The notes under the pieces were generated by a model. It was not told the DNA's origin, made no database searches, and saw only the letters and a list, made by a program, of their open reading frames with translations. The translations under genes were made by a program, and so were the position numbers. A DNA stretch of 64,000 nt from contig JAKPBN010000382.1 in assembly GCA_029778945.1 (NCBI GenBank), forward strand, positions 764-64,763. Direction: 5' to 3'. How positions within the stretch are numbered: the first letter of the stretch is position 1; each line of letters begins with the position of its first letter. Shown here piece after piece: positions 11,621-57,219 of the stretch. The stretch comes from Spirochaetota bacterium. GTDB taxonomy: Bacteria; Spirochaetota; Spirochaetia; Treponematales; Rectinemataceae.

Positions 11621-11638
11621 GCTAGCGGTCCTCCCTCA

Positions 11639-24472: not shown

Positions 24473-26518
24473 TTAGCGCAAGGGCTCATAGCGGAGGAAT
24501 TTAGCCTGGTAGGCCGCCCTCCCCTTCGTGGCCGACCGGAGCTCCGAGGCCAGGCCGAAAAGGAGGCGCAGGGGGGCCGCCGCCTCGAGGTATTTCTCGC
24601 CCCCCACGTCGTCGACGGACTCTATCCGCCCTCCCCGGGCCCCCAGGACGGCGACGGCCTGGCCCAGGCAGTCCTCGGGACAGCCCAGCTCCACCCGCAT
24701 CCAGGGCTCGAGGACCTGGGTCCCGGCCCTGGCCAGGGCATCCCGGGCGGCCAGGGAGGAGGCTATCTCCAGCACGAGGGCATCCTGGCGCCCTCCGGGC
24801 AGGGAAAAGCCCAGCAGCTTGGCTTCCCAATCCTCCACTGGCCAGCCTCCGGCCGGGCCGGCGGAAAGGCTCGCCTCCACCCCGCGGGTAAAGGCCTCTA
24901 TATAGGAGGCACTGGCCCGGAGGCCTGGCCCCAGGCCCAGGCGGTGGCCCCCGCCCCTAGGAAGGGGAGCCAGGGAGAGGTCGAGGCTGGCCCGAAGCCT
25001 CTCTCCGTTCATGGAGCGATCCAGGTCGCAATGACCATCCGCTGAATGAAGGAGGGTCTCCCGGTAGGAGACCTGGGGCGCCCCGGCCCGGAGCTTGATC
25101 CCCCGCTCGACCCGGAGCCTCTCCAGGGCAACCTCAAGGTGGAGCTCCCCCATGCCGGAGAGTATGAGACGGCCCGTCTCCCCGTCCTCCCGGAGCCTCA
25201 GGGAGGGATCCTCCTCGAGGAGGCTGGCCAGGGCCTCGGCCAGGGCGGCCCCCTCGGCCCGGCCGGGGCTTTCCAGGGCGAGAGAGACCACGGGCTCGTC
25301 AAAGCCCAAGGCCTCGTAGACCAGGAGGTGGCCGGGGCTGGAGAGGCTCGAGCCCGTCGAGCCGGGGTTGCCCTTGTTGGAGGCCGCCCCAAAGGAGAGG
25401 GCCGCTATGTCCCCGGCCCGGATGGACGGAAGGTCCTCCAGGGCCGAGGCCTGGATGGAGAAGATCTTCTGGACCCGCAGGGCCTGGTCCCTTCCGGCGT
25501 CTATCACCCTGTCTCCGGGCGCAAGGCTTCCCGACCAGACCCTCACCCAGGAAAGGCGGCCAAAGGAGGGATCGGCCTGGGTCTTGAAGACAAAGGCCGA
25601 GAAGGCCCCGGCCTCTTCGCAGGCGGCCCGGGCCGGGGCCCCGGTGGCGGGATCCAGGCCCTCGGGGCAGGGCCTGTCCCCGGGACTGGGCAGGTAATCC
25701 ACGATCCCGTCCAGGAGGAGGGCCACCGAGGCATCGGAGAAAGCCGAGCCGCAGAGGAGGGGAACCAGGCGGCCCGAGACCGTCGCCGCCCGCAGGCTCG
25801 CCCGCAGGGCCTCGGCCCCGACCTCCTGGCCTGCGGCGTAGAGGGCCAGGATAGCCTCGTCGGTCTCGGCCACGGCCTCGACCAGGGCCTCCCGGCCGGC
25901 CAGGGCCACAGGAAGGAAGTCCGGAGGAATGGGGAGGGCCCCGCCCCCGGAGGGCCGGGCCTGGAGCTCGACTAGGTCTAGGACGCCCTGGAAGTCCTGG
26001 CCCTCCCCCCAGGGCAGGCAGAGGGGGATGAGGCCGGGGACGAGGGCCTTGAGCTCCCCGGCGGCCTCGAGAAAGGAGGAGCCCCTCCGGTCAAGCTTGT
26101 TGATAAAGGCCAGGCGGGGCAGGTCCCTGCGGGCGGCGGCCCGGAGGACGGCCTCGGTCCGGGATTGGACCCCGGCCACGGCGCAGAGGACAATCACCGC
26201 GGAGTCCAGGACCCGGAGGCTGCGCTCCACCTCGGAGCCAAAGTCGATGTGGCCCGGGGTGTCGATAAGGTTGATCCCCCGGCCCTTCCATTCCAGGCGG
26301 ACGCAGGCGGCCTTTACCGTGATGCCCCGCTCCCGCTCCACGGGCAGGAAGTCCGTGGCGGTGGTCCCGGAGTCGACCGAGCCTGGGGCCCTGAGCCTCC
26401 CCGCCAGGAAGAGGATGCGTTCGGTGAGGCTGGTCTTGCCCGCGTCGATGTGGGCAAAGATGCCCAGGTTGCGGAGGATGCCTGAATCGCTGCCCATGAC
26501 CAGTACATTATAGTGCAT
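24473..26518 (-). CDS. Translational GTPase of the EF-G / ribosomal-protection (TetM/TetO-like) family, ~681 aa, in the position normally held by fusA.
   Basis: AHIDAGKT, DTPGH and NKLD motifs. The G2 region GSVDSGTTATDFLPVERERGITV resembles TetM-type GSVD.GTT.TD more than EF-G GEVHDGAATMDW. ATG chosen at 26516-18 (MHYNVLVMG). Confidence 0.75.
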   Translation of the reverse strand: MHYNVLVMGSDSGILRNLGIFAHIDAGKTSLTERILFLAGRLRAPGSVDSGTTATDFLPVERERGITVKAACVRLEWKGRGINLIDTPGHIDFGSEVERSLRVLDSAVIVLCAVAGVQSRTEAVLRAAARRDLPRLAFINKLDRRGSSFLEAAGELKALVPGLIPLCLPWGEGQDFQGVLDLVELQARPSGGGALPIPPDFLPVALAGREALVEAVAETDEAILALYAAGQEVGAEALRASLRAATVSGRLVPLLCGSAFSDASVALLLDGIVDYLPSPGDRPCPEGLDPATGAPARAACEEAGAFSAFVFKTQADPSFGRLSWVRVWSGSLAPGDRVIDAGRDQALRVQKIFSIQASALEDLPSIRAGDIAALSFGAASNKGNPGSTGSSLSSPGHLLVYEALGFDEPVVSLALESPGRAEGAALAEALASLLEEDPSLRLREDGETGRLILSGMGELHLEVALERLRVERGIKLRAGAPQVSYRETLLHSADGHCDLDRSMNGERLRASLDLSLAPLPRGGGHRLGLGPGLRASASYIEAFTRGVEASLSAGPAGGWPVEDWEAKLLGFSLPGGRQDALVLEIASSLAARDALARAGTQVLEPWMRVELGCPEDCLGQAVAVLGARGGRIESVDDVGGEKYLEAAAPLRLLFGLASELRSATKGRAAYQAKFLRYEPLR

Positions 26519-26583
26519 AGTCGCCCCGGCTTTGATATAGTATCGGGGTGGCGCCCGATGAGGGGCGGGCAAGGAGCGTCAAG

Positions 26584-29107: not shown

Positions 29108-29728
29108 ATGAGCATCCTTCCTATCCAGGGTCTTGGGGTCGAGGTCTACGGGGAAAACGAGCTCGTGGCCCGGCTCATGACCGGGGAAGCCCACTATCGC
29201 GCCTGCATCTCCATCGGCAACCCCCGCCCCCTGCTGCGGGCCCCCTCCCCGGGCGAGGCCCTCCACCCCCTGATCAAGGGCTCCTTTGACCGGATCCTCC
29301 GCCTCTCCTTCTACGACCTGGAGGAGGTGGTCGAGCTTCCCGACCGGACTAGGCTCTCGCGCATCCCCTCCCACCGGGACGCCCTCAGGGTCCTGCGCTT
29401 CTACGAGGCCACCAAGGGCCAGACCGACGGCTGGACCGTCCACTGCTGGGCCGGCATCTCCCGCTCGACCGCCGTGGCCCTGGCCCTCCTGTATCGCATA
29501 ACCGGCGATGAGGCCGAGGCCGCGCGGCGCCTCGTGGCCATCCGCCCCGAGGCCATGCCCAACCACCGCCTTGTGAGGGCCGTCGACGCCCTTTTGGGCT
29601 CGAACCGGTCAGGCGTCCTCGAGGCCGTCTACCGGGACAGGCAGGACGCCCTGCGGGAGGAGCTGGACCGGGAGCTTGAGGAGCTGGACGAGGCCCCTGA
29701 GGAGCCGTCCGGGGATGGAAGGGCCTAG
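29108..29728 (+). CDS. Protein-tyrosine/dual-specificity phosphatase-like protein with CX5R P-loop (VHCWAGISRS). Paralog of 35844-36443.
   Basis: HCxxGxxRS signature. ~45% identity to the second copy over the full length, and a shared N-terminus (VEVYGE.EL..RL..GEAH...ISIGNPR). Confidence 0.7.
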   Translation: MSILPIQGLGVEVYGENELVARLMTGEAHYRACISIGNPRPLLRAPSPGEALHPLIKGSFDRILRLSFYDLEEVVELPDRTRLSRIPSHRDALRVLRFYEATKGQTDGWTVHCWAGISRSTAVALALLYRITGDEAEAARRLVAIRPEAMPNHRLVRAVDALLGSNRSGVLEAVYRDRQDALREELDRELEELDEAPEEPSGDGRA

Positions 29729-34995: not shown

Positions 34996-35793
34996 CTAGT
35001 GCCCTTGCCTGCTACAGTTGTCCAGGTAGAAGGCTGCGGCTCCGTCCTCGGGGAGGATCTCTAGGACAAGCTTAAAGAAGTAGCTCGCCCCGCCGAAATC
35101 CTTCTGGTAATACGCGAGCATTCCCTGCTCAAACAGGCTACCAGCTCTCTGCTTGCGCTCGAAAAGCTCGGGAGAGACCCCGTCGAAAATCTCAAAAACG
35201 GAGACCGGGGCTTCCTTGCCTTCTATCTTAACCTTGCCAAGGAAACGGTACTTGTAGTCCGCCGGGGCGGCAAGCGTCTTGAAGGCCTCCTCCCCGAGAA
35301 GGAGGGGGGAAACAAATGACTTGGCGGCTTGCATTAGGCGAAAGGCCAGATCCACCGGAGGCCCGAGGGAAAGGCTGGCCCCAAGGCCGGCTAGGCCCGG
35401 CGGCAGCATGAGGCAGGGGCCGGTGTCGATCCCAAAGCGAGGCTCAAGAGCCTCCTTGCCTTGCGCCTTCCTCTCCTCATTAAGCGCCACCATGGAAGAC
35501 TGGACTTCGATCCCTGCGCCCACGGCGGTGTCCGTGCACTCTGGCCCCTCGAAGATCGCCTTGATGGTCTCCCCGGCCAGGCTCTCGATCCGGCCCCCGG
35601 CTCGAAGTATTGGCGGGCAAGCCCGGGCCAGCCAAGACTCGAGCAAGGCCGCTCGCTCACTGAGCGAGAGGCCCTGGCAGACTCCCATAGAGTCCGTGAG
35701 GGCCAGGAAAAGCACCGCAACCCTTCTCTCGCCCGGCTCGGCCGGGGGCAGGGGCTTTTCTGCATCTTTCAGCGACCGCCTGCTGAATTGCAT
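34996..35793 (-). CDS. Degenerate class-III adenylate/guanylate cyclase-like (CHD) domain protein with C-terminal TPR-like tail.
   Basis: RRVAVLFLALTDSMG, GRIESLAGETIKAIFEG, RFGIDTGPCL and LGKVKIEGKEAPVSVFEI align to CHD core blocks, but a metal-binding Asp is replaced (GE instead of GD). SD GGAGGA upstream of ATG 35793. Confidence 0.5.
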   Translation of the reverse strand: MQFSRRSLKDAEKPLPPAEPGERRVAVLFLALTDSMGVCQGLSLSERAALLESWLARACPPILRAGGRIESLAGETIKAIFEGPECTDTAVGAGIEVQSSMVALNEERKAQGKEALEPRFGIDTGPCLMLPPGLAGLGASLSLGPPVDLAFRLMQAAKSFVSPLLLGEEAFKTLAAPADYKYRFLGKVKIEGKEAPVSVFEIFDGVSPELFERKQRAGSLFEQGMLAYYQKDFGGASYFFKLVLEILPEDGAAAFYLDNCSRQGH

Positions 35794-35843
35794 GAGTCCT
35801 CCAAGCGCCCCATTCTGGGGCCAGGAACCGGGCCTGGGCAAGC

Positions 35844-36443
35844 TTACTCGTCGAACGGCTCGAGCTCCTCGAGGAGATCGTCCGCCGAAAGGTCGAGCTC
35901 GGCCTTCATCTCCTCGATGCGTTCCGCCCGGATGCGGTCATTGACCTCACTGAGGCGGGAGCCCAGGATTTCATCAAAGAGGCCCACCACGAGTTGGAGG
36001 GGCCGGGCTATGGGCCGGATACGCCGGAGCTCCCGGCCGGCCTCCTCCTCGTCCCCATGGATGAGGTAGAGGAGTCCCAGGGCCACCGCAGGGGAACGGG
36101 AGAGGCCGCCCCAGCAATGGACGGTCCAGCCATCGGCGCGGCCCCGGGTCTCCTCGTAGAAGCGCACAACTTTCTCTATATCCTTCCTGAGGGCGATGCG
36201 CCGGGGTCGCATGTGGACCAGCTGGGCCTTGGTGTCCGCGTCAAAAAAGCCGAGACGCAAAACGTCGGGGAAGCTGGCCCTGAAGGCGGGCGGCACAAAG
36301 GTCCCTGGAGGCGTTCGGCCAAGGGGATAGCGTGGATTGCCAATGGAGACGAGGGCCGAGGTGTGGGCCTCCCCCCGGGCCAGGCGCTCCTGGAGCTCGG
36401 TCTCCCCATAGACCTCGACCCGGGGCCGGTCTGGGGCCTTCAT
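35844..36443 (-). CDS. CX5R phosphatase-like protein (VHCWGGLSRS), second paralog. Translationally coupled by an ATGA overlap to the upstream STAS gene.
   Basis: P-loop signature. ATG at 36441-43 overlaps the TGA of the 36440-37000 ORF. Confidence 0.7.
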   Translation of the reverse strand: MKAPDRPRVEVYGETELQERLARGEAHTSALVSIGNPRYPLGRTPPGTFVPPAFRASFPDVLRLGFFDADTKAQLVHMRPRRIALRKDIEKVVRFYEETRGRADGWTVHCWGGLSRSPAVALGLLYLIHGDEEEAGRELRRIRPIARPLQLVVGLFDEILGSRLSEVNDRIRAERIEEMKAELDLSADDLLEELEPFDE

Positions 36444-37000
36444 GCGAGGAAAACCTCCCCCTTCGCGCTTATGGACAAGGCAGTCTTGCACTCGGCGCAG
36501 GTCGCCCGGCCAGGCTTCGCGACCCGCCAGCGCCGATCGCAGATGGGGCAGGCAAAGGCATAGGGAAAGTTGACCGGGCCTGGGATAGGGTCGGGCTCCT
36601 TGAGCGCGGCAATGGCCTGGGCTGGGGTATCGGTGACCTTAAAGAACTGGCTGAAGCCTAGGAGCTGGAATATCTCAAAGACCGGTGGCGGTACGGAGCA
36701 GAGGGCCATGTCCCCGCCTCTCTCCCTCAGGCGCTTATAGATGGCGATGAGGGACCCAAGGCCAGGGGAGCCATCGTACTTCAGGCCGGAGAGATCGAGG
36801 ACGAGGCGGATAAAGCCAACCTCGATCGCCAGCCCGACCTGAACCATGAAGCGCTCGGCGGCAGGGGATGACATAAGGCCCTCTACCCTGAGGAGAAGGC
36901 CTCCCTCGAGTTCCTCGATCCTGCCCAGCCCCACCTGGACCCCGGTCCCGGCAATCGCGTCAAAGCCCGGAACGATGTCATCGTTCCCCATCGCTAGCAT
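36440..37000 (-). CDS. STAS (anti-sigma-factor-antagonist-like) domain fused to C-terminal zinc ribbon, copy 3 (phospho-site region degenerate: DGSPGLG).
   Basis: N-terminus MGNDDIVPGFDA. STAS core, then CPICDRRW...CAEC. Confidence 0.7.
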   Translation of the reverse strand: MLAMGNDDIVPGFDAIAGTGVQVGLGRIEELEGGLLLRVEGLMSSPAAERFMVQVGLAIEVGFIRLVLDLSGLKYDGSPGLGSLIAIYKRLRERGGDMALCSVPPPVFEIFQLLGFSQFFKVTDTPAQAIAALKEPDPIPGPVNFPYAFACPICDRRWRVAKPGRATCAECKTALSISAKGEVFLA

Positions 37001-37021
37001 GGCCCTCGGTTGGGGCAGGCC

Positions 37022-37573
37022 CTAGCCAAGGTGGACCTCTCCGGCCTCGCCGATGATGAGGCGGGTATTGCAGTCCGGGCAGCAGAAGGGCCCCGGGGCC
37101 GAGGCGCTATGGGGGAGGTTGCAGATGGGACAGCTAAAGCGCCGAGGAAATGCGGGTACCTGCTCCTCGGCCCGGACCCTGAGAAAATGGGCCTTGGCGT
37201 CCTCGAGGGAATCCACAAAGGCAAAGAACTGCCCGAAGCCCATCATCTCCACGGTCGCCAGGGGCTTGGGATGGCAATTGAGGATCACCATGTCCCCGGA
37301 GAGGGGCCTCACCTTCTTGAGTATGGCCGAGAGGCTTCCTATGCCGGTGCTGCTGATGTATTCCAAGCCGGGGCACTCGAGGACAACCCGGCGAAAGCCC
37401 GCATCGATGGCCAGGATGACCTTGCGCAGGAAGGCAGGAGAGGTCTGGGTATCAAGATAGCCCTTGAGGCCTATGACGAGGCCAGCCTCCAGCCCCTCAA
37501 GGGACCGCAGGCTGAGCTCGATCCCAAAGCAAACCTCGTCGTCAAAGCCGGGAACCAGGTCATTATTATTCAT
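37022..37573 (-). CDS. STAS domain plus C-terminal zinc ribbon, copy 2 (ISSTGIG phospho-site-like motif).
   Basis: ATG 37571-73 (MNNNDLVPGFDD) with GGAG SD. C-terminus CPICN...CCPDC. Confidence 0.7.
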   Translation of the reverse strand: MNNNDLVPGFDDEVCFGIELSLRSLEGLEAGLVIGLKGYLDTQTSPAFLRKVILAIDAGFRRVVLECPGLEYISSTGIGSLSAILKKVRPLSGDMVILNCHPKPLATVEMMGFGQFFAFVDSLEDAKAHFLRVRAEEQVPAFPRRFSCPICNLPHSASAPGPFCCPDCNTRLIIGEAGEVHLG

Positions 37574-37598
37574 AGTTGCCCCTTTTAATCTCCGTATC

Positions 37599-38150
37599 TC
37601 ATTGGACAAAGACCTCGCCCTTTTCCGTGACCAGGAAGGAGGTCCTGCACTTTGTGCACCGGTAGAGGCCTGGGGATCTCACAAGGAGAGGGTGGGCGCA
37701 CAGGGGGCAGGGGAAATGCTTAGGGAAGGCCTGGGCGTCGCCGGAGGCTCCAGGGGACATAAAATGGTCCCGGGCCTCCGCCAGAGTAGCGGCAAAGTTA
37801 AAGTACTGGCTAAAGCCGATGAGGTCCAGGGTGGCCTTGGCCTTTGGGGCGCAGTCCAGAATGACAAGGTCGCCACCCAGGGGCTTGAGCCGCTTGCTCA
37901 GGGCGGTGAGGCAGCCGATCCCAGAGCTGGAGACAAAGCCCAGGCCGGCGGCGCCGAGGATGAGATTCCGGTAGCCGCCCTCGATGGCCTTCATGGCCCG
38001 GCCTTGGAGCGAAGCCGAGGTGTGGGCGTCCAAGTCGCCCACAAGCTCGATGAGGAGGCATCCCTCCAGGCCCGCGACAAGCTCGAGCCTCAGGGAAAGG
38101 CCGTCCCGCAGCTCGTCGTCAAAACCGGGCACAATGTCGTTGTTCGCCAT
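37599..38150 (-). CDS. STAS domain plus C-terminal zinc ribbon, copy 1 (VSSSGIG motif).
   Basis: ATG 38148-50 (MANNDIVPGFDD). C-terminus CPLCAH...CTKC. Confidence 0.7.
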   Translation of the reverse strand: MANNDIVPGFDDELRDGLSLRLELVAGLEGCLLIELVGDLDAHTSASLQGRAMKAIEGGYRNLILGAAGLGFVSSSGIGCLTALSKRLKPLGGDLVILDCAPKAKATLDLIGFSQYFNFAATLAEARDHFMSPGASGDAQAFPKHFPCPLCAHPLLVRSPGLYRCTKCRTSFLVTEKGEVFVQ

Positions 38151-38342
38151 GGCAATCCTTCCTTGCGTCCCGGGACCAGTCATAAAGCCCAAGCCTGGGC
38201 TCGCTCCGAAAGAAAGGATAGTGCAGGATCGTTGAATCGGCCATAGCAATTGAGAACCGGGCAGCAGGGAAGAGTAAGCCGCTTCCGAGCCGTCGTTGAA
38301 GCGAAAGTCCCGAAAATCCCAGAGGGGCAGGAGGGTCGGGAA

Positions 38343-40013
38343 CTAGTCCATTCTTTTAGGGAAACCCAGGGTCGCCATCGTTCCCGGCGCGGACCCAAAA
38401 GCGAGGCGGCCCCGGGCGCCGGAAAGAATCGTCTGTACCAGGGAAAGGCCCGAGAAGTCACCGGGAGGCTCATGTCCTGGGCCGTAGGGTCCAGGCAGGG
38501 CTCCGGGGGCTATCCCCGGGCCATCATCAGCTACCACGAGCTCGAGGTCGCCCTCGACCTCCCTGAGGGACACCCTTATCTCCCCGGCCCTGCCCTCGGG
38601 ATAGGCATGGCGGGCGCTATTGGAGACAAGTTCGGTCAGGGCGAACAAGAGGATCTGCTCGTACCAAGGATCGAAATCGCCCTGCAGCGTGGCGGCATAG
38701 TCGAGCCTGGCCTCGCTGTTCCAGATGGACAGGACTTCCCGAGCCAGGGCCCCCATCCTTGCCCCAAGGTCGGGGCTGGCCCAGGGGTGGAGCAGCCTAT
38801 CCATCAGGCATATCCCGGCCTCAAGAAAGGCGGTCTGCCTGCAGTGGGCGGTCCGCACCGCATCCCGGGCCTTCTCGGAGTCCAGGCCGGCCAGGGCGGA
38901 TGCGCAGAGCCGCTTGAGGAGGGCCTGGTCGGCGACGAGGGCCTCCCTGTACTTGACCAAGTCGGCTAGGCCGGCCTGGTTCATCCCGAAGCGGTTGGGC
39001 CAGTCCACATAGGCTTTGAGGATCTCTTCTGTAGAGGGAGGGAATACCATCCCGACCCCGGAGCGAGTGAGGGTCTCGACCAGCTTGGCTCTCTGTCCCT
39101 CCTCCCCACGCAGAGCCAGGACAAGACTATCCAGGCCCTGGCCCTCGATTGGGGGGATAGGCCCATACGACGGGGCATCCCAGGTCCAGGAGGACACTGC
39201 CCACGGGAAGACTACCCGTACCGAGCCATCCTCACCGGCTTCAAGCCGCGCGCCAAAGCCCTCCGCAAGGACGGCCGCCACCGAGCCCTTCCTTAGGGCG
39301 GCCGGGCACGGGGCACCAAGCCGGAGTTCCCCTCCTCCAGGTGTCCTTAGCACGATGAGGGGGATGGTCTTTTCCGGAGGGGAGCATTGTAGGATCTCCG
39401 CCAGGAGGGGGCCAAAGAGAAGGCATAGCTGTCTTGTGGCCGAAGGCCCTAGGGCAAGGTCCCCGAGCTCATACCTGATGGGCCTCTCTCTGCCTTCAAG
39501 GAAACCGGTCACGCTGGCTTCCACGGATTCCAGGAGATCCTGGAGCCTTATTGGGCGCCCGCCGAAGAGGGAGCCGAAGGAGTGGCGCTCCGCCTCCACC
39601 ATACCCATCAACGACGCCAGGAAGGGCAGGAGGGAGGACAGCTCGGGCTCAAGGCGCGTACTTGAGCCCTGGAGGGACAGGATCGACTGCCTAAGGGCAA
39701 TCTGGTTCTTAGCCCGGTGGCCCAGCTCGCGGGTGAGCATGTGCCTCTCCCGGATTCGTTCCTCATCAAAGCTGAAGGCTCCCTGCCTCCGGGCCAGAAG
39801 GAAGACTTGGCAGATGGTGAGATCCAGAACCTGACCCTCCTGAAGGGCAAGCTCGAGATCGACAAGGGCGAGGCCCTCCCGTCCAAGGGCTTCCCGGGCC
39901 GAACCTACAGCCACGAGCTCGAGGCCAGCCCCCTCAAGCAGGTCCCTGAGCCAGATCCGGTCTTTCTGCTCGGGCAAGAAGAGAAAAGCCTTGAGACCCT
40001 CGTTTTTTTCCAT
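38343..40013 (-). CDS. Hybrid signal-transduction histidine kinase (REC-like N-domain, HisKA_2-type H-box ELGHRAKNQ, C-terminal HATPase_c with N and G boxes).
   Basis: Motifs HMLTRELGHRAKNQIALRQ and ELVSNSARHA...DDGPGI...GLSLVQ. The first gene of the minus-strand operon ahead of the STAS triplet. Confidence 0.7.
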   Translation of the reverse strand: MEKNEGLKAFLFLPEQKDRIWLRDLLEGAGLELVAVGSAREALGREGLALVDLELALQEGQVLDLTICQVFLLARRQGAFSFDEERIRERHMLTRELGHRAKNQIALRQSILSLQGSSTRLEPELSSLLPFLASLMGMVEAERHSFGSLFGGRPIRLQDLLESVEASVTGFLEGRERPIRYELGDLALGPSATRQLCLLFGPLLAEILQCSPPEKTIPLIVLRTPGGGELRLGAPCPAALRKGSVAAVLAEGFGARLEAGEDGSVRVVFPWAVSSWTWDAPSYGPIPPIEGQGLDSLVLALRGEEGQRAKLVETLTRSGVGMVFPPSTEEILKAYVDWPNRFGMNQAGLADLVKYREALVADQALLKRLCASALAGLDSEKARDAVRTAHCRQTAFLEAGICLMDRLLHPWASPDLGARMGALAREVLSIWNSEARLDYAATLQGDFDPWYEQILLFALTELVSNSARHAYPEGRAGEIRVSLREVEGDLELVVADDGPGIAPGALPGPYGPGHEPPGDFSGLSLVQTILSGARGRLAFGSAPGTMATLGFPKRMD

Positions 40014-40061
40014 GCCCGCAAGTCTAGGCCTTGGCCCCGCCGGCCGCAAGGCTAATCTGCC

Positions 40062-40090
40062 TTGACGAACTCGCCATAGTGTATTATAAA
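40062..40090 (+). promoter_or_regulatory. Strong sigma70-like promoter (-35 TTGACG, 17-nt spacer, -10 TATAAA) with inverted repeat AGTGT-N7-ACACT overlapping the -10. Candidate operator.
   Basis: Read directly. Followed by SD GAAGGAGGG and ATG 40122. Confidence 0.55.
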
Positions 40091-40121
40091 CACTTTGTAG
40101 ACAAAATGCGAAGGAGGGTCC

Positions 40122-40940
40122 ATGCTAGGAGCGATCGTAGGGGACACCATTGGCAGCACCCGGGAATTCGATCCCATCAGGACTACGGACTTCGAGCTCT
40201 ACCCCAGGGGCTCAAGCTACACCGATGATACGGTGATGACCTGCGCGATCGCCGACGCCCTTTTGGGGCCAGGCGACTTTGGCCCCGCCATGCGAAGACT
40301 AGGCCGTCACTACATGGGCTCAGGCTATGGCGGACGCTTTTACCGCTGGATGGACGGCACCATCGAGGGTCCCTACAATAGCTTCGGCAACGGCTCGGCC
40401 ATGCGGGTGAGCCCCGTGGCCTGGGCTTTCGAGACCGAGACGGCCGTCCTGGCCGCCGCCCGGGCCACGGCTCTGCCCACCCACGACCATCCGGAAGGGG
40501 TCAAAGGCGCCGAGGCCACGGCCCTGGCCATTTTTCTGGCCAGGAAGGGTGTAGGCAAGACCGAGATCAAGGCCAGGATCGAGGAGTACTTTGGCTACAA
40601 TCTCTCCCGGTCCTTGGCCGCCATCAGGCCGGGCTATGGCTTCGATGAGACCTGCCCAAAGACCGTCCCGGAGGCGATCACTTCCTTCCTGGAAGCCGAC
40701 AGCTTCGAGGCCACGATCCGGAACGCCATATCTCTAGGGGGTGACGCCGATACCCTCGCGGCTATCGCCGGCTCCATCGCCGAGGCCTTCTGGGGCGGCG
40801 TGCCCGACGGCCTCCTTGGCCCGGCGATCGCGGGCCTGGACGAGAGGTTATACGGCATAGCCATGGCCTTCTGCGCCCGCTGGAGGCCCGAGGAGGCGGC
40901 CCGGCTCGCCAGGTTCCGGCCCGCGACGGACGGGAGCTAA
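40122..40940 (+). CDS. ADP-ribosylglycohydrolase family protein (DraG/ARH-like).
   Basis: N-terminus [17 protein letters not shown]... and TDDTVMT are typical ARH motifs. Confidence 0.75.
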
Positions 40941-40950: not shown

Positions 40951-41637
40951 ATGTACAGCTACAAATACCCCCACCCGGCGGTGACCGTGGACTGCGCCGT
41001 CTTTGGCCTCGACGATGGGGACCTCAAGGTCCTCCTCATCCAGCGGGACCTCGAGCCCTTCGCCGGCTCCTGGGCCCTGCCCGGAGGCTTTGTCAAGCTC
41101 GAGGAGGATCTCGAGGCCTCGGCCCGGCGGGAGCTCGAGGAGGAGACCGGAGTGACGGACCTCTACCTCGAGCAGCTGGCGACCTTTGGGGCCCCCGACC
41201 GGGATCCCCGGGAGAGGGTGATCACCGTGGCCTACCTCTCCATCGTCAACCTCTTTGACCACCCGGTCACGGCGGCCACCGATGCCCGCAAGGCCGCCTG
41301 GTTCCCTGTGGACGCCCTGCCCCGCCTGGCCTTTGACCACGAGGACATCCTGGACCTGGCCCTGGCCAGGCTCCGGTCCAAGCTTCGCTGGCAGCCCCTG
41401 GGCTTCGAGTTCCTGCCGGAGAAATTCACCCTCACCCAGGTCCAGCGCCTCTACGAGACTATCCTGGGTGAAGCCCTGGACAAGCGCAACTTCCGCAAGA
41501 AGATCCTCTCCACGGGCCTTCTTGTCCCCCTGGAGGAGGTCGAGACCGATGTCGCCCATCGCGCCGCCCAACTCTACCGCTTTGACCGCAAGGAATACGC
41601 CCGGCTCCAGAAGAAGGGCTACGGCTTCGAGATCTAG
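40951..41637 (+). CDS. Nudix-domain protein with C-terminal helical/winged-helix-like extension (NrtR-like architecture).
   Basis: Nudix box [24 protein letters not shown]. ~90-aa C-terminal domain after the Nudix fold. 11-nt gap to the ARH gene. Confidence 0.6.
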
Positions 41638-41664: not shown

Positions 41665-42642
41665 ATGTTCAAGCTTCCGTTTTTCGAGGAGCTCGAGGGC
41701 TCACGCAGGATCCTCCTGGCCGGCTGTGGCGGGGGCTTCGACGTCTTTGGGGCCCTGCCCCTCTACTTCGCCCTCAAGGCCGAGGGCAAGGAAGTCCACC
41801 TCGCGAGCCTCTCCTTCTCCTTTCCCGACCTGGCCCTGCCCATCCTCTCCCTTCAGCCCGGCTGGAAGGGGCGGATCCTCACGCCCAACCTTGTCCGGGT
41901 GGACGCCGACACGCCGGAGTTCGCCCCCTACTTCCCCGAGCTCTTCCTCTCCCGCTGGTTCCGCTCCCGGGGCGAGGACGTCCCCCTCTGGTGCTTCCCC
42001 GTGAGCGGCGCCCGGCCCCTCGCCGCCTCCTACGGCCTCCTCTCGGAGAGGCTTGGCCTCGACGCCGTGGTCCTCGTGGACGGCGGAAGCGACAGCCTCA
42101 TGCGGGGCGACGAGGCCGACCTCGGCACCCCCTCGGAGGACGTGGCCTCCATGATCGCGGTCGACTCCCTCGACCTTCCAGTCAAGCTCCTGGCCTGCAT
42201 CGGCTTTGGCGCAGACTGGTTCCATGGCATCTCCCATGGCCGGGCCTTGGAGGCCACGGCCGCCCTCGCGGCCGCGGGGGGCTACCTCGGGCTCTTCTCC
42301 CTCCTCGACACCATGCCCGAGGCCAGGCTCTACCGGGAGGCCTGCGCCTATGTCTTCGAGCGCATGCCCGGCAGCGAGAGCATCGTCAACACCTCGATCC
42401 TCTCCGCTCTCGAGGGTCACTTTGGGGACTACCATGCCCTGAAGCGCACCAGCAAGGGCGGGCTCTGGATCAGCCCCCTCATGTCCGCCTACTGGTGCTA
42501 CAGGCTGTCCGCCGTCACGGGCCGCATGGCCTATCCTCGGGACAGCCTAGCCGAGACTGAGGGGATCATGGACCTCACGAGGATAATCATCGAGACCAAC
42601 CGCTCGGGGCCGAGACGGCCCCGGGTCGAGATACCCATCTAG
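41665..42642 (+). CDS. Conserved hypothetical protein (Gly-rich N-terminal LLAGCGGGFDVFGALPLY motif). Third gene of the ARH-Nudix operon.
   Basis: ORF only. No family assigned with confidence (possibly DUF1152-like). Confidence 0.5.
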   Translation: MFKLPFFEELEGSRRILLAGCGGGFDVFGALPLYFALKAEGKEVHLASLSFSFPDLALPILSLQPGWKGRILTPNLVRVDADTPEFAPYFPELFLSRWFRSRGEDVPLWCFPVSGARPLAASYGLLSERLGLDAVVLVDGGSDSLMRGDEADLGTPSEDVASMIAVDSLDLPVKLLACIGFGADWFHGISHGRALEATAALAAAGGYLGLFSLLDTMPEARLYREACAYVFERMPGSESIVNTSILSALEGHFGDYHALKRTSKGGLWISPLMSAYWCYRLSAVTGRMAYPRDSLAETEGIMDLTRIIIETNRSGPRRPRVEIPI

Positions 42643-43724
42643 GGCTGCAGGGCCGCGGCGATCGCCGGATGTGGGTTGGACAGGGCATGGACAAGGGCCG
42701 ACCTTCCGCCCTGGTCGACGGCGTTCAAATCAGCCCCGGCGGCCAGCAGGACACGAACAAGCTCGGGGTCGGAGCTAAAGGCGGCGGCGTGCATGAGGGG
42801 GGTCTTGCCGCTGGGACTTCGCTGATCGACCTCGGCTCCCGCCCTGAGGATTTCCCGGACCTCCCCCGGGCCGCCATTGCGGCAGGCCTGATAGAGGCCG
42901 CTTGCATCCCAGACCGCCCTTCCTGTTTTCCTCTTGGAAAGGACTAGCCTGAGCCTGGCTATGAGCTCGCGTTCGTTAAAAGGCTTGCAGATAAAGTCCG
43001 AAGGCCTGGTGAGGGCAGCCCGCCCCAAAGTCTTGCCATCGATATAGCTAGTGAGGTAGGCCAGGGCCGGCGCAAGAAACTTACCCATCTCCAAGGCGCA
43101 GTCAATCCCGTCCAAACCAGAGCCAGAGCCAAGATCGATGCCGGTGATCACGAGGGAGGGCCGCAGGCGCCGGGCCATGGAGAGGGCCTCCCAGGAGTCG
43201 GCGGCGATCCCGACCACCGGAAAGCCCAGCCTCTCGAGGCGCCGTTGAAGGTCTAGGGCTATAATTTTCTCGTCCTCGACGATCAGGACCTCGTTAGTCT
43301 CGACATCCGACTCCTGGCTGGCCGCGGATCCCCAGGACCGGGACTCCAGGGCCAAGAAAAGGCTCGAGCGTAAATCGCCCTCCTTGAAGGGCTTGAGCAA
43401 CAGGGCCGAAGGCCCGAAGGCGATGGCCCGGTCCAAGGTCGCGCTATCCGAAAATGAGGACAGGAGTATGACCGGGATCCCCAGGGCATCGCGAACCTCA
43501 TCGGCTGCCCGGATCCCGTCCCCTCCCCCGGCCAGCCGAGCCTCGGAGAGGATAAGATCGGGCCTCAGTTCCCGGGCCTTGTAGAGGACCCCCTCCGCGT
43601 AGGCCACCAGGCCGGCAAGCTCATAGCCAAAGCGCTCGAGCCTGCGCCCCAGGTCCAGGGCGATTCGCTCATCCGGCTCCGCGACGAGGATCCGCTTTTT
43701 CCTGACCAACTCCTGCTCAGACAC
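42639..43724 (-). CDS. Tandem receiver (REC-REC) domain protein with C-terminal ankyrin repeats.
   Basis: Two CheY-like folds (ILVAEPDE..., VLIVEDEKII...), then ANK repeats (GKTPLMHAAAFS...LLAAGADLNAVDQGGRSAL). Probable GTG start ~43724, just after the radical SAM stop. The first REC has Ser-Glu where the phospho-Asp is expected. Confidence 0.6.
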   Translation of the reverse strand: MSEQELVRKKRILVAEPDERIALDLGRRLERFGYELAGLVAYAEGVLYKARELRPDLILSEARLAGGGDGIRAADEVRDALGIPVILLSSFSDSATLDRAIAFGPSALLLKPFKEGDLRSSLFLALESRSWGSAASQESDVETNEVLIVEDEKIIALDLQRRLERLGFPVVGIAADSWEALSMARRLRPSLVITGIDLGSGSGLDGIDCALEMGKFLAPALAYLTSYIDGKTLGRAALTRPSDFICKPFNERELIARLRLVLSKRKTGRAVWDASGLYQACRNGGPGEVREILRAGAEVDQRSPSGKTPLMHAAAFSSDPELVRVLLAAGADLNAVDQGGRSALVHALSNPHPAIAAALQP

Positions 43725-45033
43725 GGTGGCCCCCGTCTTTAAGGTGGCCCGTGATCGCCGCCACCTCGCGGTTGATCCGCGCGACCGCCTCCCCGTCCCC
43801 AGCCTCAACCCCAGCCTCGTGCATCCGCTGGGCGACCATGGTCGTAAAGGCGCGCAGGGAGCAGGGATGGATACAGGTCGTGCCGAAGACCTCAGGATCG
43901 ACCAGGGGCAGGTAGTCGGCGATCCGACCCTCGGCATGGAGGCGATAGATAAAGGCATCCTGCATATGGTTGAGAATATCCACCATGGGCCGGAGGTGGA
44001 AATTGCCGTAGCCCTCCCCGCCCTGGGCTATCCGGCAGGTGGAGAGCTCGCCATTAGCCTTGAGGGTAAGGTGGGGATAGGGCCGATAAAAGGCCTTGCA
44101 GCGCAGGATCTCCGCGGGGAAAGCATCGAGGCTGTAGCCGATGCCACCGCCTTTGCGGGCCCCGTTTCCAATGTCTATAAAGTTGCTCACGATGTTTGTC
44201 TCGTCGGCGCAGAATCGCTCCATCGCGCCGTCGCTCTGCCCATAGAGCAGGGGAGCGAGGTCCAGCACGAGGCGAGCAAGCTCATCCTTCGGTCCCGACC
44301 TGGCGAGGAGAGACAGCCTCGGCTCAAGACTGGCTTCGCGCACCCTCCCCAGGCCCCCGACAACCCGGGCATAGAGTCCGGGCGAGCCCCGGGACCGGTC
44401 ATGGACGGCCTCGGGCCCATCGATACTAAAGACGACATGGCTTACCCCATGGTCGCGGAGGTCGTCGAGGTAAGCCCGATCATCCCGGTACCGTCTGCCT
44501 GCGGCCTCGAAGTCCTTCTCGCCCAGGAACCAGCCGTTGCTCAACACGCTGATGGTCTGGGCGCCGCGAGCCCTGATGCTGCGGGCCAGGCCGAGCCAGC
44601 CTGAGCCGAACTTCGACACCTCGCCGCCGGTAAAGGAATAGTTCGGGATGGCCATGTCGGCGAAGACGGCGGTCGCCGCGTCGAGGGCGGCCAGGTCGTT
44701 CTCGGTGCGCAGGCCTACCCCGGCGTTGTAGCAATGCTCGCAGGAGAGATTGCAGCACGTGGTGAATTCCACCACGACCTTTATCACGTTCTCAAGGGGA
44801 TTGCGCCGGTAGCGGAGGGCGATCGCGGCCTCGTCCACGGGCTCCTCGACGGCCTCGACCCAGGCCCGGGCCATGAGGTCTCTCTGGGCCCGACTGCCCT
44901 GCCAGGGCTCGTGGCCCCGCCCAAGGAGGGCGACCAGGGCCTCGTCGAGTCCGGGCAGGGGCGCACGTCCAGGCTCTTTTCTATCGACGGCGAGGGCCCG
45001 CCTGTGGCCGACATTGGTCAGGGCTAACTGCAT
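43717..45033 (-). CDS. Radical SAM domain protein (CNLSCEHC = CX3CX2C) with additional C-terminal Cys clusters.
   Basis: ATG 45031-33 with SD GGGGAGAA. Canonical radical-SAM cysteine triad. Confidence 0.65.
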   Translation of the reverse strand: MQLALTNVGHRRALAVDRKEPGRAPLPGLDEALVALLGRGHEPWQGSRAQRDLMARAWVEAVEEPVDEAAIALRYRRNPLENVIKVVVEFTTCCNLSCEHCYNAGVGLRTENDLAALDAATAVFADMAIPNYSFTGGEVSKFGSGWLGLARSIRARGAQTISVLSNGWFLGEKDFEAAGRRYRDDRAYLDDLRDHGVSHVVFSIDGPEAVHDRSRGSPGLYARVVGGLGRVREASLEPRLSLLARSGPKDELARLVLDLAPLLYGQSDGAMERFCADETNIVSNFIDIGNGARKGGGIGYSLDAFPAEILRCKAFYRPYPHLTLKANGELSTCRIAQGGEGYGNFHLRPMVDILNHMQDAFIYRLHAEGRIADYLPLVDPEVFGTTCIHPCSLRAFTTMVAQRMHEAGVEAGDGEAVARINREVAAITGHLKDGGHRV

Positions 45034-46379: not shown

Positions 46380-47867
46380 ATGGGCGAGAGCCAGGAATTC
46401 CTCAGGGTAGGCGCCATAGTCGGCCAGGACAACTGGGACTTGATCCATAGGGTGGCCCTCGAGGCACCTCGGTTCCCGGGCTTGCCAGGGGCAGGCTCCC
46501 TTGTCAGGCTCGAGGCCGAGGGCGAAGTCCCTCCGGAGATCGAGACCCTTGTCGTAGACCTCCATGCCTACCGCGACCTGGTCCATCTAGCCAAGCACTA
46601 CCGTCATTACCGCAAGCGGATCCTCTTCGTGGCCCAGACGCCCCAGGAGGAGCTGGGCCTCCTGGAGCTGATCGACCCCTGGGATGACATCGTCCGGGCC
46701 GATGCCTTGGAGGGCCAGCTGGTCCTCCGGATCGAGCGCCTATTGGCTGGGCCCTTTATGACCCGCGTAGACGTCCTCACCGGCCTATCCAACCGTAAGG
46801 TAGTCTTCGATATGGCCAAGATGGCCATAGAGGAAGGGGTCGATCCCGACCGGCCCCTCTCGGTCATCATGGTCGACCTGGACCACTTCAAGCGCATAAA
46901 CGACAGCTGGGGCCATGCGACCGGCGACGCCGTGCTCAAGGCGGCCAGCCGGGCCCTCGAGGCAGGCGCTCCGGACGCCGAGTGCGTGGCCCGGATCGGC
47001 GGGGAGGAATTCCTTGTCTTGCTGCGGGCCGACAGGGCCCATGCGAGATCAAGGGCCGAGGATCTTAGGGCCCAGATAGTCGGTCTTGCCATCGAGCCAG
47101 AGCTCCGCTTTACCGCCAGCTTCGGCGTCGCGACCGTGACCGCCCCTCCCAAGGACCTCGAGGAGCTCATCCTCGCGGCCGATCGCTGCCTCTACCAAGC
47201 CAAGCAATCCGGCCGGAACCGCGTTGTGGACGAGGCCGACTTCAACCGCAACGCCGAGGCAAAGGACGAGGACCCGGCGATCATCGACTTTGACAATCGG
47301 GTCAGGGTCCTTACGGACCGCCTCGCGGAATACCTCTCCCAGAAAGGAAGGGCCCTCGCCCGGGGTTACCAGGATGAGGCCGAGCTCGATGGCCTTACGG
47401 GCATCTACAACCGCCGCTATTTTGACCGGCGCCTCCCCCGGGAGCTCGAGCTCGCCCACAAGCCTGACCGGCCCCTCTCCCTCCTGTTTTTCGATATCGA
47501 TGATTTCGGGGCGGTCAACCGGAACTATGGTTTCCCGGCGGGAGACCGCTGCCTCAAGGCCGTCACCTCGGCCATGGCCAAGTCGGTCCGGGCCACGGAC
47601 TGGGTGGCCCGCTATGGCGGGGAGGAACTCTGCGCGATCCTGCCCGACACTCCCCTCGACGAGGCCGTGCCTATCGCCGAGCGGGTCCTCGAGGCTATCC
47701 GGGCCCTGGAGACGACGGCCGTGGATGGCCGTCGCTTTAAGGTCACCGCAAGCTGCGGGATAGTGGAAACCCGGGGCCAGGATGCAGGGGTGCCCGAGTT
47801 TGTCCAGCGCGCCTCCGACAAGGTCAGGGCCGCCAAGAAGGCCGGGAAAAACCGGGCGGTATCCTAA
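46380..47867 (+). CDS. Diguanylate-cyclase-like protein with two tandem GGDEF domains (GGEEF and GGEEL) and a degenerate N-terminal receiver-like region.
   Basis: RIGGEEFLVLL and RYGGEELCAIL motifs. 3-nt gap after the flotillin gene. Confidence 0.75.
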   Translation: MGESQEFLRVGAIVGQDNWDLIHRVALEAPRFPGLPGAGSLVRLEAEGEVPPEIETLVVDLHAYRDLVHLAKHYRHYRKRILFVAQTPQEELGLLELIDPWDDIVRADALEGQLVLRIERLLAGPFMTRVDVLTGLSNRKVVFDMAKMAIEEGVDPDRPLSVIMVDLDHFKRINDSWGHATGDAVLKAASRALEAGAPDAECVARIGGEEFLVLLRADRAHARSRAEDLRAQIVGLAIEPELRFTASFGVATVTAPPKDLEELILAADRCLYQAKQSGRNRVVDEADFNRNAEAKDEDPAIIDFDNRVRVLTDRLAEYLSQKGRALARGYQDEAELDGLTGIYNRRYFDRRLPRELELAHKPDRPLSLLFFDIDDFGAVNRNYGFPAGDRCLKAVTSAMAKSVRATDWVARYGGEELCAILPDTPLDEAVPIAERVLEAIRALETTAVDGRRFKVTASCGIVETRGQDAGVPEFVQRASDKVRAAKKAGKNRAVS

Positions 47868-48110: not shown

Positions 48111-48581
48111 CTACCAGCGGTAGTGGGCAAAGGCCTTGTTCGCCTCGGCCATCTTGTGCGTATCTTCCTTCTTCTTCACGGCCGAGCCGGTGTTGTTGAA
48201 GGCGTCGACAAGCTCGTCGGCGAGCTTGTCGGCCATCGCCTTGCCGGAGCGGGAGCGGGCGGCGTTGATCAGCCAGCGCATGGCTAGGGCCTCGCGCCGG
48301 GTGTCGCGGATCTCGACGGGCACCTGGTAGGTCGCGCCGCCGACGCGGCGGGACTTGACCTCAACCAGGGGCTTCGAGTTCTCGATGGCCTTGTTGAAGA
48401 CGTCCAGGGCAGGAACCCCGGCCTTCTTCTCCATGGCCTCCATCGCATCATACACAATGCGGGTGCAGATGGACTTCTTGCCCTGCCACATCAGGCGGCA
48501 CACGAACTTCGTGAGGGTGATGGAATTGTACTTCGGATCCGGGAGATGCCCCCGGTCGATTGTCTTCTTTTTGCGTCCCAT
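48111..48581 (-). CDS. rpsG: 30S ribosomal protein S7.
   Basis: 156-aa translation matches S7. Confidence 0.95.
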
Positions 48582-48593
48582 GGTTCTGCCCCC

Positions 48594-48968
48594 TTACGCC
48601 TTCGGCCGCTTGGCGCCGTACTTGGACCGGGCCTTCTTGCGGTCTTCGACGCCGAGGGTATCCTTGGCACCGCGGACGATGTGGTAGCGCACGCCGGGGA
48701 GGTCCTTTACACGGCCTCCACGGATGAGTACCACCGAGTGCTCCTGAAGGTTGTGGCCAACGCCGGGGATGTAGGCGGTGACTTCAATACCATTCGTGAG
48801 CCTTACACGAGCGACCTTCCGGAGGGCCGAATTCGGCTTCTTCGGGGTTACGGTCATAACGCGGGTGCAAACACCCCGCCGCTGAGGGCACTCTTGGAGT
48901 GCCGGGGCCTTGGTGCGCCAGGTGTTTACCTTGCGCCCGAGGCGGATTAGCTGGTTGATCGTCGGCAT
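48594..48968 (-). CDS. rpsL: 30S ribosomal protein S12.
   Basis: [13 protein letters not shown]...[10 protein letters not shown]... matches S12. Confidence 0.97.
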
Positions 48969-49084
48969 TCTATGCTCTCGACTCCCTTTGTGTGCCAGGC
49001 TTCAGCATCGCCATGGCGAATTAGTGAAAAAACCCTATGCAAACCCCCAAACCAAGCCCCTAAAGACCCAATTCAGAGACGATA

Positions 49085-49114
49085 ACCTTACAGCCCCCTG
49101 ACCGTCTTCGTCAA
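49085..49114 (-). promoter_or_regulatory. Candidate promoter for rpsL-rpsG (-35 TTGACG at 49109-14, 18-nt spacer, -10 TAAGGT at 49085-90), just after the rpoC stop.
   Basis: Hexamer inspection only. Confidence 0.3.
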
Positions 49115-49119
49115 GCTGG

Positions 49120-53484
<4,365 letters not shown>

Positions 53485-53533
53485 ATCAGTCCCCCCTCAT
53501 CGAGTCGACTTGGGCAAAATGTACCTTGTTATC

Positions 53534-53714
53534 AATCACCACGGAGATCAGGGATGGAAGACGGAGATCACGGAGACTTCGCAGGGAAAGGCGGTTCGAG
53601 AAGGAAACTACGTTCATGATTCCCTTCTTCCTTTCTCCCACTCTTGTCTTCCTCCGTGATCTCCGTGTCGACCGGCCCAAAACGGGCCGGTCCTCCGTGG
53701 CTCCGTGGTGAATC
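53534..53714 (-). promoter_or_regulatory. Structured rpoB-rpoC intercistronic spacer: CACGGAG motifs (53540, 53569; ACGGAG 53561) on the left and four CTCCGTG motifs (53652, 53661, 53693, 53701) on the right, able to form long-range duplexes.
   Basis: Motif positions read directly. The spacer is 243 nt, unusually long for rpoB-rpoC. Confidence 0.45.
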
Positions 53715-53727
53715 GTATAGATGCCTT

Positions 53728-57219
<3,492 letters not shown>

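Follow-up and report, generated by a model that had tools for sequence, protein, structure and literature searches.

In the 64,000-nt stretch of DNA analyzed here, hereafter the window (contig JAKPBN010000382.1 of GenBank assembly GCA_029778945.1, from an uncultured spirochaete of the family Rectinemataceae), six open reading frames (ORFs) follow one another on the minus strand between positions 34996 and 40013. An earlier note, made from the sequence alone, had described six co-directional minus-strand genes of a signaling operon, and all six were found where it had placed them. Counted from the kinase gene, the gaps between them are 192, 25, 30, -4 and 50 nt, the negative value being an ATGA in which the start codon of the phosphatase gene overlaps the stop codon of the third gene for a STAS and zinc ribbon protein (STAS-ZnR). 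The six genes are:

38343-40013, minus strand: atypical HisKA_2-type kinase, 556 amino acids (aa)
37599-38150, minus strand: STAS-ZnR paralogue 1, 183 aa; VSSSGIG; Ser75 codon at 37926-37928; ribbon CPLC...CTKC
37022-37573, minus strand: STAS-ZnR paralogue 2, 183 aa; ISSTGIG; Ser75 codon at 37349-37351; ribbon CPIC...CPDC
36440-36991, minus strand: STAS-ZnR paralogue 3, 183 aa; DGSPGLG; Ser75 codon at 36767-36769; ribbon CPIC...CAEC
35844-36443, minus strand: Cys phosphatase of the dual-specificity phosphatase (DSP) fold, 199 aa; HCWGGLSRS; His109-Cys110 codons at 36114-36119; Asp68; LLEEL tail
34996-35793, minus strand: truncated class-III cyclase domain with a TPR tail, predicted to be catalytically dead, 265 aa

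Comparison with other loci showed that the conserved unit is the STAS-ZnR/phosphatase pair and not the set of six genes; the tandem kinase, the two extra STAS-ZnR copies and the putatively dead cyclase-TPR protein are additions of the window's lineage. To obtain these loci, scans with a profile of the phosphatase family recovered 21 genome loci and 37 metagenome loci which, with four earlier loci, made up 61 phosphatase-anchored loci (L-numbers below are labels of comparison loci or contigs). The identical six-gene operon was confined to contigs of the same species (L001-L004, L040), whereas a STAS-ZnR gene was located within 2 kb of the phosphatase gene in 12 of the 61 loci. Of the gene-neighborhood conservation that the earlier note had suggested checking, the pair stood and the six-gene operon did not. 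The pair was found in at least five other lineages, as adjacent genes, as overlapping genes in reversed order, or as a one-ORF fusion. In the related species represented by L016, a kinase gene is followed by a gene for a 434-aa protein, a single STAS-ZnR gene and a phosphatase gene, the last two overlapping by 8 nt; the pair is translationally coupled both there and in the window. A close relative, L012, has one STAS-ZnR gene between remnants of the kinase start, the 434-aa gene and the phosphatase gene. The two genes are adjacent in L028, and six other loci (L034, L035, L036, L060, L067 and L074) contain an operon of STAS-STAS-ZnR, nucleoside hydrolase, metallophosphoesterase and phosphatase genes, with a sensor kinase gene upstream in L036 and L074. 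In L047 the STAS-ZnR and phosphatase are fused in frame in a single ORF of 366 codons, of which L066 is a second, degraded contig. The phosphatase family is essentially absent from viral contigs, and the one STAS-ZnR match among them (L079, from an organism of 43% GC) proved to carry the pair, with the phosphatase gene preceding the STAS-ZnR gene and an overlap of 11 nt. Ratios of nonsynonymous to synonymous substitution (dN/dS) showed purifying selection on STAS-ZnR paralogue 2 (0.20), on the phosphatase (0.17, against L016) and on the kinase (0.35, against L016); genes near the first two gave values of 0.10-0.30.

Several other loci were considered alongside these. A 126-aa gene upstream of the phosphatase gene in L014 was tried as a STAS protein and rejected (hhalign probability 0.1), and the actinomycete locus L032 showed neither ADP-ribose nor STAS context. 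In L037, a 465-aa protein (10438-11832, minus strand) has two STAS domains but lacks a zinc ribbon; a truncated phosphatase gene is encoded about 60 nt away on the other strand, and a set of ADP-ribosylglycohydrolase, NrtR and DUF1152 genes is found at a distance of 3.5 kb. The 434-aa protein of L016 (1566-2870), encoded between the kinase and STAS genes, carries an HExxH-like motif, HEYAH.

All three 183-aa proteins were assigned to STAS by Pfam (E = 1.7e-16, 2.6e-15 and 4.5e-16), and the fusion of STAS to a C-terminal CxxC...CxxC zinc ribbon, as described in the earlier note, was borne out by a Cys4 pattern without exceptions. Each protein begins M-x-N-[ND]-D-[IL]-VPGFD and contains CPxC...CxxC, and mutual identity is 35-43%. 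In the AlphaFold model of paralogue 2 (pLDDT 90.6), residues 1-137 form the STAS domain and residues 144-182 a five-strand ribbon; the closest PDB structures to the STAS model are SpoIIAA (1til/1tid) and RsbV (6m36), with TM scores of 0.84-0.91. Among 39 sequences of the family, including the three window copies, Ser75, Gly77 and Gly79 are invariant and the four ribbon cysteines are at least 90% conserved. Ser75 is located at the start of helix 2 in a D-S-x-G-type motif and is the predicted phospho-acceptor. The motifs VSSSGIG, ISSTGIG and DGSPGLG are indeed present, but the last is not a degenerate phospho-site as had been thought, since the residue in the Ser75 column is Ser in all three copies.

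A triplication with progressive decay is likewise not supported: besides the invariant Ser75, paralogues 1, 2 and 3 retain 57, 50 and 48, respectively, of 93 columns that are conserved among the canonical proteins, and the copies are not each other's closest relatives. A neighbor-joining tree recovered the canonical STAS-ZnR clade (92%), united paralogue 2 with the single copies of relatives (100%), placed paralogue 1 with paralogue 2 (bootstrap 87%), and put paralogue 3 (bootstrap 78%) alongside the STAS-STAS-ZnR proteins encoded in operons with nucleoside hydrolase, metallophosphoesterase and phosphatase genes. A recent triplication in situ was rejected on the basis of the 35-43% identity and because the three alone formed a clade in just 10% of bootstraps; judging by their sequences, they are old paralogues. 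Paralogue 2 is the copy with orthologues in relatives, being 83-84% identical to the single copies of L012 and L016. Full-length relatives of 180-190 aa are widespread in Spirochaetota, from sources named Treponema, Spirochaetales or Spirochaetes. The canonical gene, present as a single copy in Treponema-like genomes, has a strongly conserved neighborhood of its own there (L005-L011; e.g., L008:6981-14148), in the order S41 peptidase CtpB, RsmE, WecG, sigma-54 activator, SpoU, SDR, STAS-ZnR, in some cases a CesT-like chaperone, PspA, Trans_reg_C, two genes without Pfam matches and DnaJ, an arrangement that hints at a distinct role of the envelope-stress type for the parent family.

The phosphatase contains a P-loop of the HCX5R type (HCWGGLSRS) that is at least 90% conserved in its family, in keeping with the CX5R enzyme of tyrosine-phosphatase fold, overlapping the last STAS gene, that had been proposed. 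The score for Pfam DSPc was below its cutoff (E = 0.001; 19.3 vs. 33.5 bits). The enzyme was placed in the Cys-phosphatase fold by a family profile of 21 members, which matched DUSP10 at 1e-5, and by an AlphaFold model (pLDDT 90.2) that matched Tk-PTP and DUSP22/15/10 with a Foldseek probability of 1.0. In the family alignment, Asp68, the candidate general acid, is invariant and situated 42 residues N-terminal of Cys110, and an acidic C-terminal tail, LLEEL, is conserved. The window encodes a second member of the family at 29108-29728 on the plus strand (206 aa, 51% identical to the first; DSPc E = 2.5e-5), which is also present in L012 at 6160-6780.

The zinc ribbon is not restricted to STAS proteins. 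A ribbon-only hidden Markov model matched the C-termini of ADP-ribosylglycohydrolases in L056, L070 and L071 (i-E-values 1e-9 to 9e-9). The gene for the glycohydrolase with a ribbon is immediately upstream of the phosphatase gene in L070 and L071, and in L056 it stands beside a DUF1152 gene, divergent from the phosphatase gene. Since these glycohydrolases adjoin the phosphatase or DUF1152, the ribbon appears to travel with the phosphatase whatever domain is attached to it.

Three further genes, which the earlier note had missed, diverge from the kinase gene, and the intervening 108 nt contain predicted regulatory sites:

40122-40940, plus strand: ADP-ribosylglycohydrolase, the divergent neighbor (Pfam ADP_ribosyl_GH 2.4e-31)
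40951-41637, plus strand: NrtR-type regulator with Nudix and winged-helix domains (Pfam NrtR_WHD 3e-28, NUDIX 4e-21)
41665-42642, plus strand: DUF1152 protein, third gene of the divergent operon (Pfam 6e-12)
40077-40094, no strand assigned: predicted NrtR-type operator (pattern match), palindrome TAGTGT-N7-ACACT with GT-N7-AC core, in the 108 nt that separate the kinase gene from the glycohydrolase gene
40083-40112, minus strand: predicted sigma-70-like promoter facing the kinase operon, TTCGCA-18-TATAAT (consensus scan, 10/12 matches), its -10 box within the operator

The known NrtR motif is a 21-bp palindrome with a GT-N7-AC core (PMC2330246), and the predicted operator reads TAGTGTATTATAAACACT. 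The 64-kb window holds one such site, against 0.07 expected by chance, and the motif also occurs in the matching intergenic regions of L012, L016, L021, L022, L027, L029, L037, L043, L044, L054 and L057. Operator-like sites are located directly upstream of the STAS-phosphatase genes in L016 and of the STAS-ZnR gene in L054; none was found near the phosphatase paralogue at 29108-29728. On the plus strand, a promoter-like TTGACG-17-TATAAA, recognized by eye, faces the glycohydrolase gene and likewise overlaps the operator. L012 (3389-3852) retains the kinase promoter and first kinase codons, joined to remnants of the 434-aa gene, so the STAS gene of that relative may be read from the NrtR-controlled promoter.

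This context recurs around the phosphatase family. In 24 of the 61 loci, genes for an ADP-ribosylglycohydrolase, NrtR, DUF1152, a metallophosphoesterase or a nucleoside hydrolase were present within 8 kb of the phosphatase gene, often adjacent or divergent. The phosphatase gene is directly divergent from or adjacent to NrtR, the glycohydrolase or DUF1152 in L022, L027, L029, L043, L044, L047, L068 and L071, and DUF1152 is found beside it also in L029, L050, L054, L056 and L068. In L021 (= L014; 6100-12300), NrtR diverges from genes for a NadR-like AAA_28 protein, PnuC, an ADP-ribosylglycohydrolase, a 126-aa protein, the phosphatase and, weakly similar to SpoIIE/PP2C (E = 5e-4), a protein of 550 aa, and the divergent region there holds two operator sites. 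A scan of the proteins encoded at 26.5-48.6 kb of the window, several of which lack a Pfam match, turned up no ADP-ribosyltransferase or sirtuin.

The kinase matches Pfam HATPase_c (3e-11) and weakly HWE_HK (E = 0.06), while the HisKA_2 model itself gave no match. Profile comparison with hhalign resolved two cores. Residues 85-275 align with a HisKA_2 kinase profile (probability 95) as a DHp domain and an ATPase without N and G1 boxes; its His box, ELGHRAKN (residues 96-103, of the E-x-x-H-R-x-K-N type), contains His99 (codon 39717-39719), and the ATPase directly after it has lost both the N-box Asn and the DxGxG motif. Residues 400-556 correspond to DHp helix 2, without a His box, and an intact ATPase at 455-556 (probability 99.4). 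The protein is therefore a tandem core with complementary loss, its His box and its working ATPase being about 285 residues apart. A comparison of one half with the other by BLASTP gave no signal of internal duplication. The earlier assignment as a HisKA_2-type hybrid kinase was half right: the closest relatives are all HisKA_2 kinases, but no Response_reg match was obtained at E <= 1, so the protein is not a hybrid, residues 1-85 being receiver-like by eye only.

When 1.84 billion cluster representatives were scanned in full with HMMER, nothing but the kinase's own cluster came out below 1e-30, and the remaining matches cover just residues ~455-556 and ~84-169; no relative of the same architecture was found there beyond its own 50% cluster. 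In the L016 orthologue (65% identity), His99 and a conserved HCRQ motif are retained together with both ATPase domains, one of them dead and well conserved, the other intact. The kinase is an orphan, a lineage-specific addition outside the conserved core. Although the best PDB sequence match of its ATPase is RsbW (6m36), a specific RsbW likeness was considered and rejected, since the ten best kinase matches checked are HisKA_2 kinases that cross-hit HATPase_c_2 as well; the resemblance is therefore non-specific.

The cyclase-like protein scored poorly in Pfam (E = 0.27) and matched the PADLOC PycC model at 9e-12, this generic match being the only one that the PADLOC defense-system models gave in the cluster. 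All 31 homologues at 35-54% identity carry PF00211 followed by a TPR tail, which upholds the class-III assignment in the earlier note. A single substituted metal ligand, however, understates the change: relative to columns at least 90% conserved in homologues, both metal ligands (D31A and D75E), the substrate Lys (K71S) and the transition-state Asn (N148D) have been replaced, and the N-terminus is truncated such that the helix/linker region is missing. In the catalytic half, 46 of 67 conserved columns are lost and identity to homologues is 25%, against 73% among the homologues themselves, whereas the C-terminal half with the TPR keeps 37 of 44. In L016 both the cyclase gene and the neighboring M50 gene are absent; because a LysR gene there follows the phosphatase gene within 22 nt, the cyclase gene and the convergent M50 gene are an insertion in the window's lineage, the cyclase gene being a recent addition. 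A 260-aa gene upstream of the Treponema STAS-ZnR gene was tried as a relative of the cyclase and rejected for want of any similarity.

The cluster is part of a ~22-kb variable stretch (window 26500-48600), where whole-gene differences set the window apart from L012 and L016. On one side this stretch is bordered by the fusA/tuf/S10-spc ribosomal cluster (EF-G at 24473-26572, EF-Tu, L2, SecY) and on the other by rpsG/rpoC/rpoB (48111-57219). Between 42639 and 47867 are further signaling genes, encoding a receiver-receiver-ankyrin protein (42639-43958, minus strand), a radical-SAM protein, a Band_7 protein and a GGDEF diguanylate cyclase (46380-47867); the receiver-receiver-ankyrin protein is a possible orphan partner of the kinase, though in a separate transcription unit. 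Far from the cluster, a coding-like ORF of 1199 aa (3047-6646, minus strand; GC3 0.83) has no Pfam match at 1e-5 and neighbors genes for a 733-aa Ig/fn3-like repeat protein and a 715-aa TPR protein.

Taken together, we propose with moderate confidence that the STAS-ZnR proteins and the Cys phosphatase form a module of phospho-switchable adaptor and phosphatase under NrtR-type ADP-ribose control. In such a module, NrtR would sit on one operator overlapping both divergent promoters until released by ADP-ribose, and its release would switch on the glycohydrolase operon and the kinase-STAS-phosphatase operon together. The STAS-ZnR proteins would serve as switchable adaptors, docked through the zinc ribbon to the phosphatase or to its target, and phosphorylation of Ser75 by a GHKL kinase domain would alter the partners that they bind. 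The candidate Ser75 kinase is the ATPase that is intact at the C-terminus of the tandem kinase, and the tandem kinase would provide local input. The phosphatase would reset the STAS switch, take the phosphate off an ADP-ribose-derived product, or both; the STAS-ZnR fusion and the stand-alone pairs favor a direct protein partnership, while the many STAS-less, ADP-ribose-linked members of the family favor a small-molecule substrate. A narrower version, that the Cys phosphatase replaces PP2C as the eraser of STAS phospho-Ser, with the ribbon as a docking module borrowed by ADP-ribosylglycohydrolases and the switch tied to ADP-ribose sensing via NrtR, would constitute an undescribed partner-switching pair, and we put it forward only tentatively. 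If true, there would be a direct connection in Spirochaetota between Ser phosphorylation and the response to ADP-ribosylation.

Several observations weigh against the proposed module. The promoter and operator calls are pattern matches, and the model of ADP-ribosylglycohydrolase-based systems on which it draws is itself a prediction. Since no operator was found in the 192-nt gap before the first STAS gene, co-regulation hinges on read-through from the kinase promoter. By its relatives the kinase is a histidine kinase, and the cluster yielded neither a single-domain kinase of the RsbW type nor a PP2C or sigma factor. About 49 of the 61 phosphatase loci, many of them on short contigs, show no STAS neighbor, which suggests that the basic job of the phosphatase is independent of STAS. 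Conversely, the single-copy STAS-ZnR genes of Treponema-like genomes have no phosphatase, kinase or glycohydrolase gene nearby, and the L079 pair has no glycohydrolase or NrtR gene within 5 kb.

Along the lines of the earlier note, the cluster would be a self-contained partner switch, in which the kinase phosphorylates the STAS Ser, the Cys phosphatase stands in for PP2C and the three STAS-ZnR proteins are parallel or decoy antagonists; the nearby ADP-ribose genes would be incidental. In favor of this, the STAS domains belong to the SpoIIAA/RsbV class and Ser75 is invariant, the pair stands alone with overlapping genes in L079 and is fused in L047, the kinase ATPase matches RsbW best among PDB sequences, and phospho-Ser hydrolysis is within the reach of DSP-fold enzymes. 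Nevertheless, we consider this reading rather unlikely: most members of the phosphatase family have no STAS neighbor and 24 of 61 are near ADP-ribose genes, the same ribbon is fused to a glycohydrolase, no sigma or anti-sigma factor target is encoded, and the kinase is an orphan of this lineage. In addition, the fusion of a substrate domain to its own phosphatase would be unusual, and, as read from the sequences, the phospho-site column holds Asp or Gly in some STAS domains of type B (L034, L035).

Because the phosphatase family is linked to ADP-ribose genes, a non-protein substrate is a serious rival to phospho-STAS, and such substrates are well known for DSP-fold enzymes. In its full form, this alternative makes the phosphatase an enzyme of the NrtR regulon acting on a phosphorylated NAD or ADP-ribose derivative (2'-phospho-ADP-ribose, ADP-ribose-1''-phosphate or NADP), with the STAS-ZnR proteins as co-transcribed regulators or ligand sensors and no phospho-Ser cycle between them and the phosphatase. 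It is consistent with the tight packing of the phosphatase gene with nucleoside hydrolase and metallophosphoesterase genes, with its position downstream of the NadR-like/PnuC/glycohydrolase set in L021, and with predicted NrtR operators beside phosphatase genes in L022, L029, L043 and L044; Iyer et al. (PMC9503650) predict that such phosphatases process released ADP-ribose. The fusion and the overlapping gene pairs point instead to physical partnership, the conserved acidic LLEEL tail is more typical of a docking motif, and ADP-ribose genes are not found near the L079 pair; in this full form, the alternative seems improbable to us. A patchwork without integrated function, that is, a variable chromosomal island shaped by repeated insertion and deletion with several genes decaying, is more doubtful still. 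It would accord with the variable stretch between the two ribosomal and RNA polymerase gene clusters, with the whole-gene differences of L012 and L016 and the kinase and phosphatase remnants in L012, and with one kinase ATPase domain and the cyclase being, as their residues suggest, catalytically dead. Set against this are dN/dS values of 0.17-0.35 for the three genes having orthologues, the conservation of the dead ATPase domain in the orthologue, the selective retention of the cyclase C-terminal half and TPR, and the recurrence of the STAS-phosphatase pair in distant lineages.

The proposed module of adaptor and phosphatase bears on several questions. To our knowledge, partner switching always uses PP2C phosphatases, and a recurrent, sometimes fused pairing of STAS with a Cys phosphatase would widen that rule if the STAS domain can be phosphorylated. 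It would also offer the first functional handle on the STAS-ZnR family, which is conserved across Spirochaetota including Treponema and was not found in the literature searched. Should the phosphatase act on an ADP-ribose or NAD phosphoester, it would name a missing enzyme of NAD/ADP-ribose turnover. That literature contained no paper pairing STAS with a Cys phosphatase or with a zinc ribbon, which agrees with the remark in the earlier note that the combination was not recognized as described; nor did it contain a paper combining STAS, partner switching and a dual-specificity phosphatase, or a mention of DUF1152, and the STAS review does not cover spirochaetes.

Compared with the partner-switching modules SpoIIAA-SpoIIAB-SpoIIE and RsbV-RsbW-RsbU/P, the window shares the STAS class with Ser at the acceptor position, a GHKL ATPase and a phosphatase. 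The phosphatase, however, is Cys-based and of DSP fold, no PP2C being present in the six proteins or scanned neighbors; GHKL domains are found only in the 556-aa tandem HisKA_2 kinase and not in a 15-kDa anti-sigma kinase; the STAS protein bears a zinc ribbon; and no sigma factor or other output partner was found among the genes scanned at 26.5-48.6 kb. Another similar system is CapK-CapS (EMBO J 2026, PMC13373217). CapS, of ~184 aa, combines an N-terminal STAS domain with a small C-terminal binding domain as STAS-ZnR does, is switched when a GHKL kinase phosphorylates its STAS Ser, and is encoded beside a conflict or stress operon. Its C-terminus is a DNA-binding winged helix instead of a Cys4 ribbon, CapK is an HTH-STAS-GHKL protein, and the passages considered describe no dedicated phosphatase. 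By analogy, CapS may be taken as a precedent for a STAS phospho-switch with a small C-terminal binding domain. The kinase shares with HisKA_2/HWE kinases the His box (ELGHRAKN) and the alignment of the C-terminal ATPase, and differs in its two tandem cores of complementary loss and in the ~285 residues between His box and working ATPase.

We read the ADP-ribosylglycohydrolase, NrtR and DUF1152 genes as a local form of the 'ARG-centric' systems, for which a role against viral ADP-ribosylation has been predicted (Iyer, Burroughs, Anantharaman and Aravind, Viruses 2022, PMC9503650, section 3.8). Such systems are built from a glycohydrolase, a repressor of the Nudix or WYL type, a phosphatase and variable modules. 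The phosphatase of those systems is usually Cys-based (rhodanese-phosphatase superfamily), otherwise calcineurin-like or of other kinds, and their modules are gained and lost between close relatives (PMC9503650); the window, L012 and L016 show the same pattern. The window and those systems both have a glycohydrolase, a Nudix-HTH (NrtR-like) repressor and a Cys phosphatase, and a calcineurin-like phosphoesterase is found in the window's relatives. In the window, the phosphatase gene is ~4 kb from the glycohydrolase gene, at the end of the divergent kinase-STAS operon, and neither a chaperone nor a nuclease module was seen. STAS, zinc ribbons, histidine kinases and spirochaetes go unmentioned in the published text. 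The link to NrtR, the glycohydrolase and DUF1152 adds a regulatory layer to these predicted systems. With the NrtR regulons (Rodionov et al., 2008, PMC2330246), in which nrtR of Streptomyces adjoins a draG-like glycohydrolase gene, the window shares a Nudix and winged-helix regulator and a palindrome in a divergent promoter region. The predicted regulon members are signaling proteins and a Cys phosphatase rather than enzymes of NAD synthesis or salvage, with the exception of L021 (NadR-like, PnuC). The cluster is therefore neither a categorically new system nor a conserved six-gene operon; it combines known kinds, namely components of partner switching and ARG-centric/NrtR systems.

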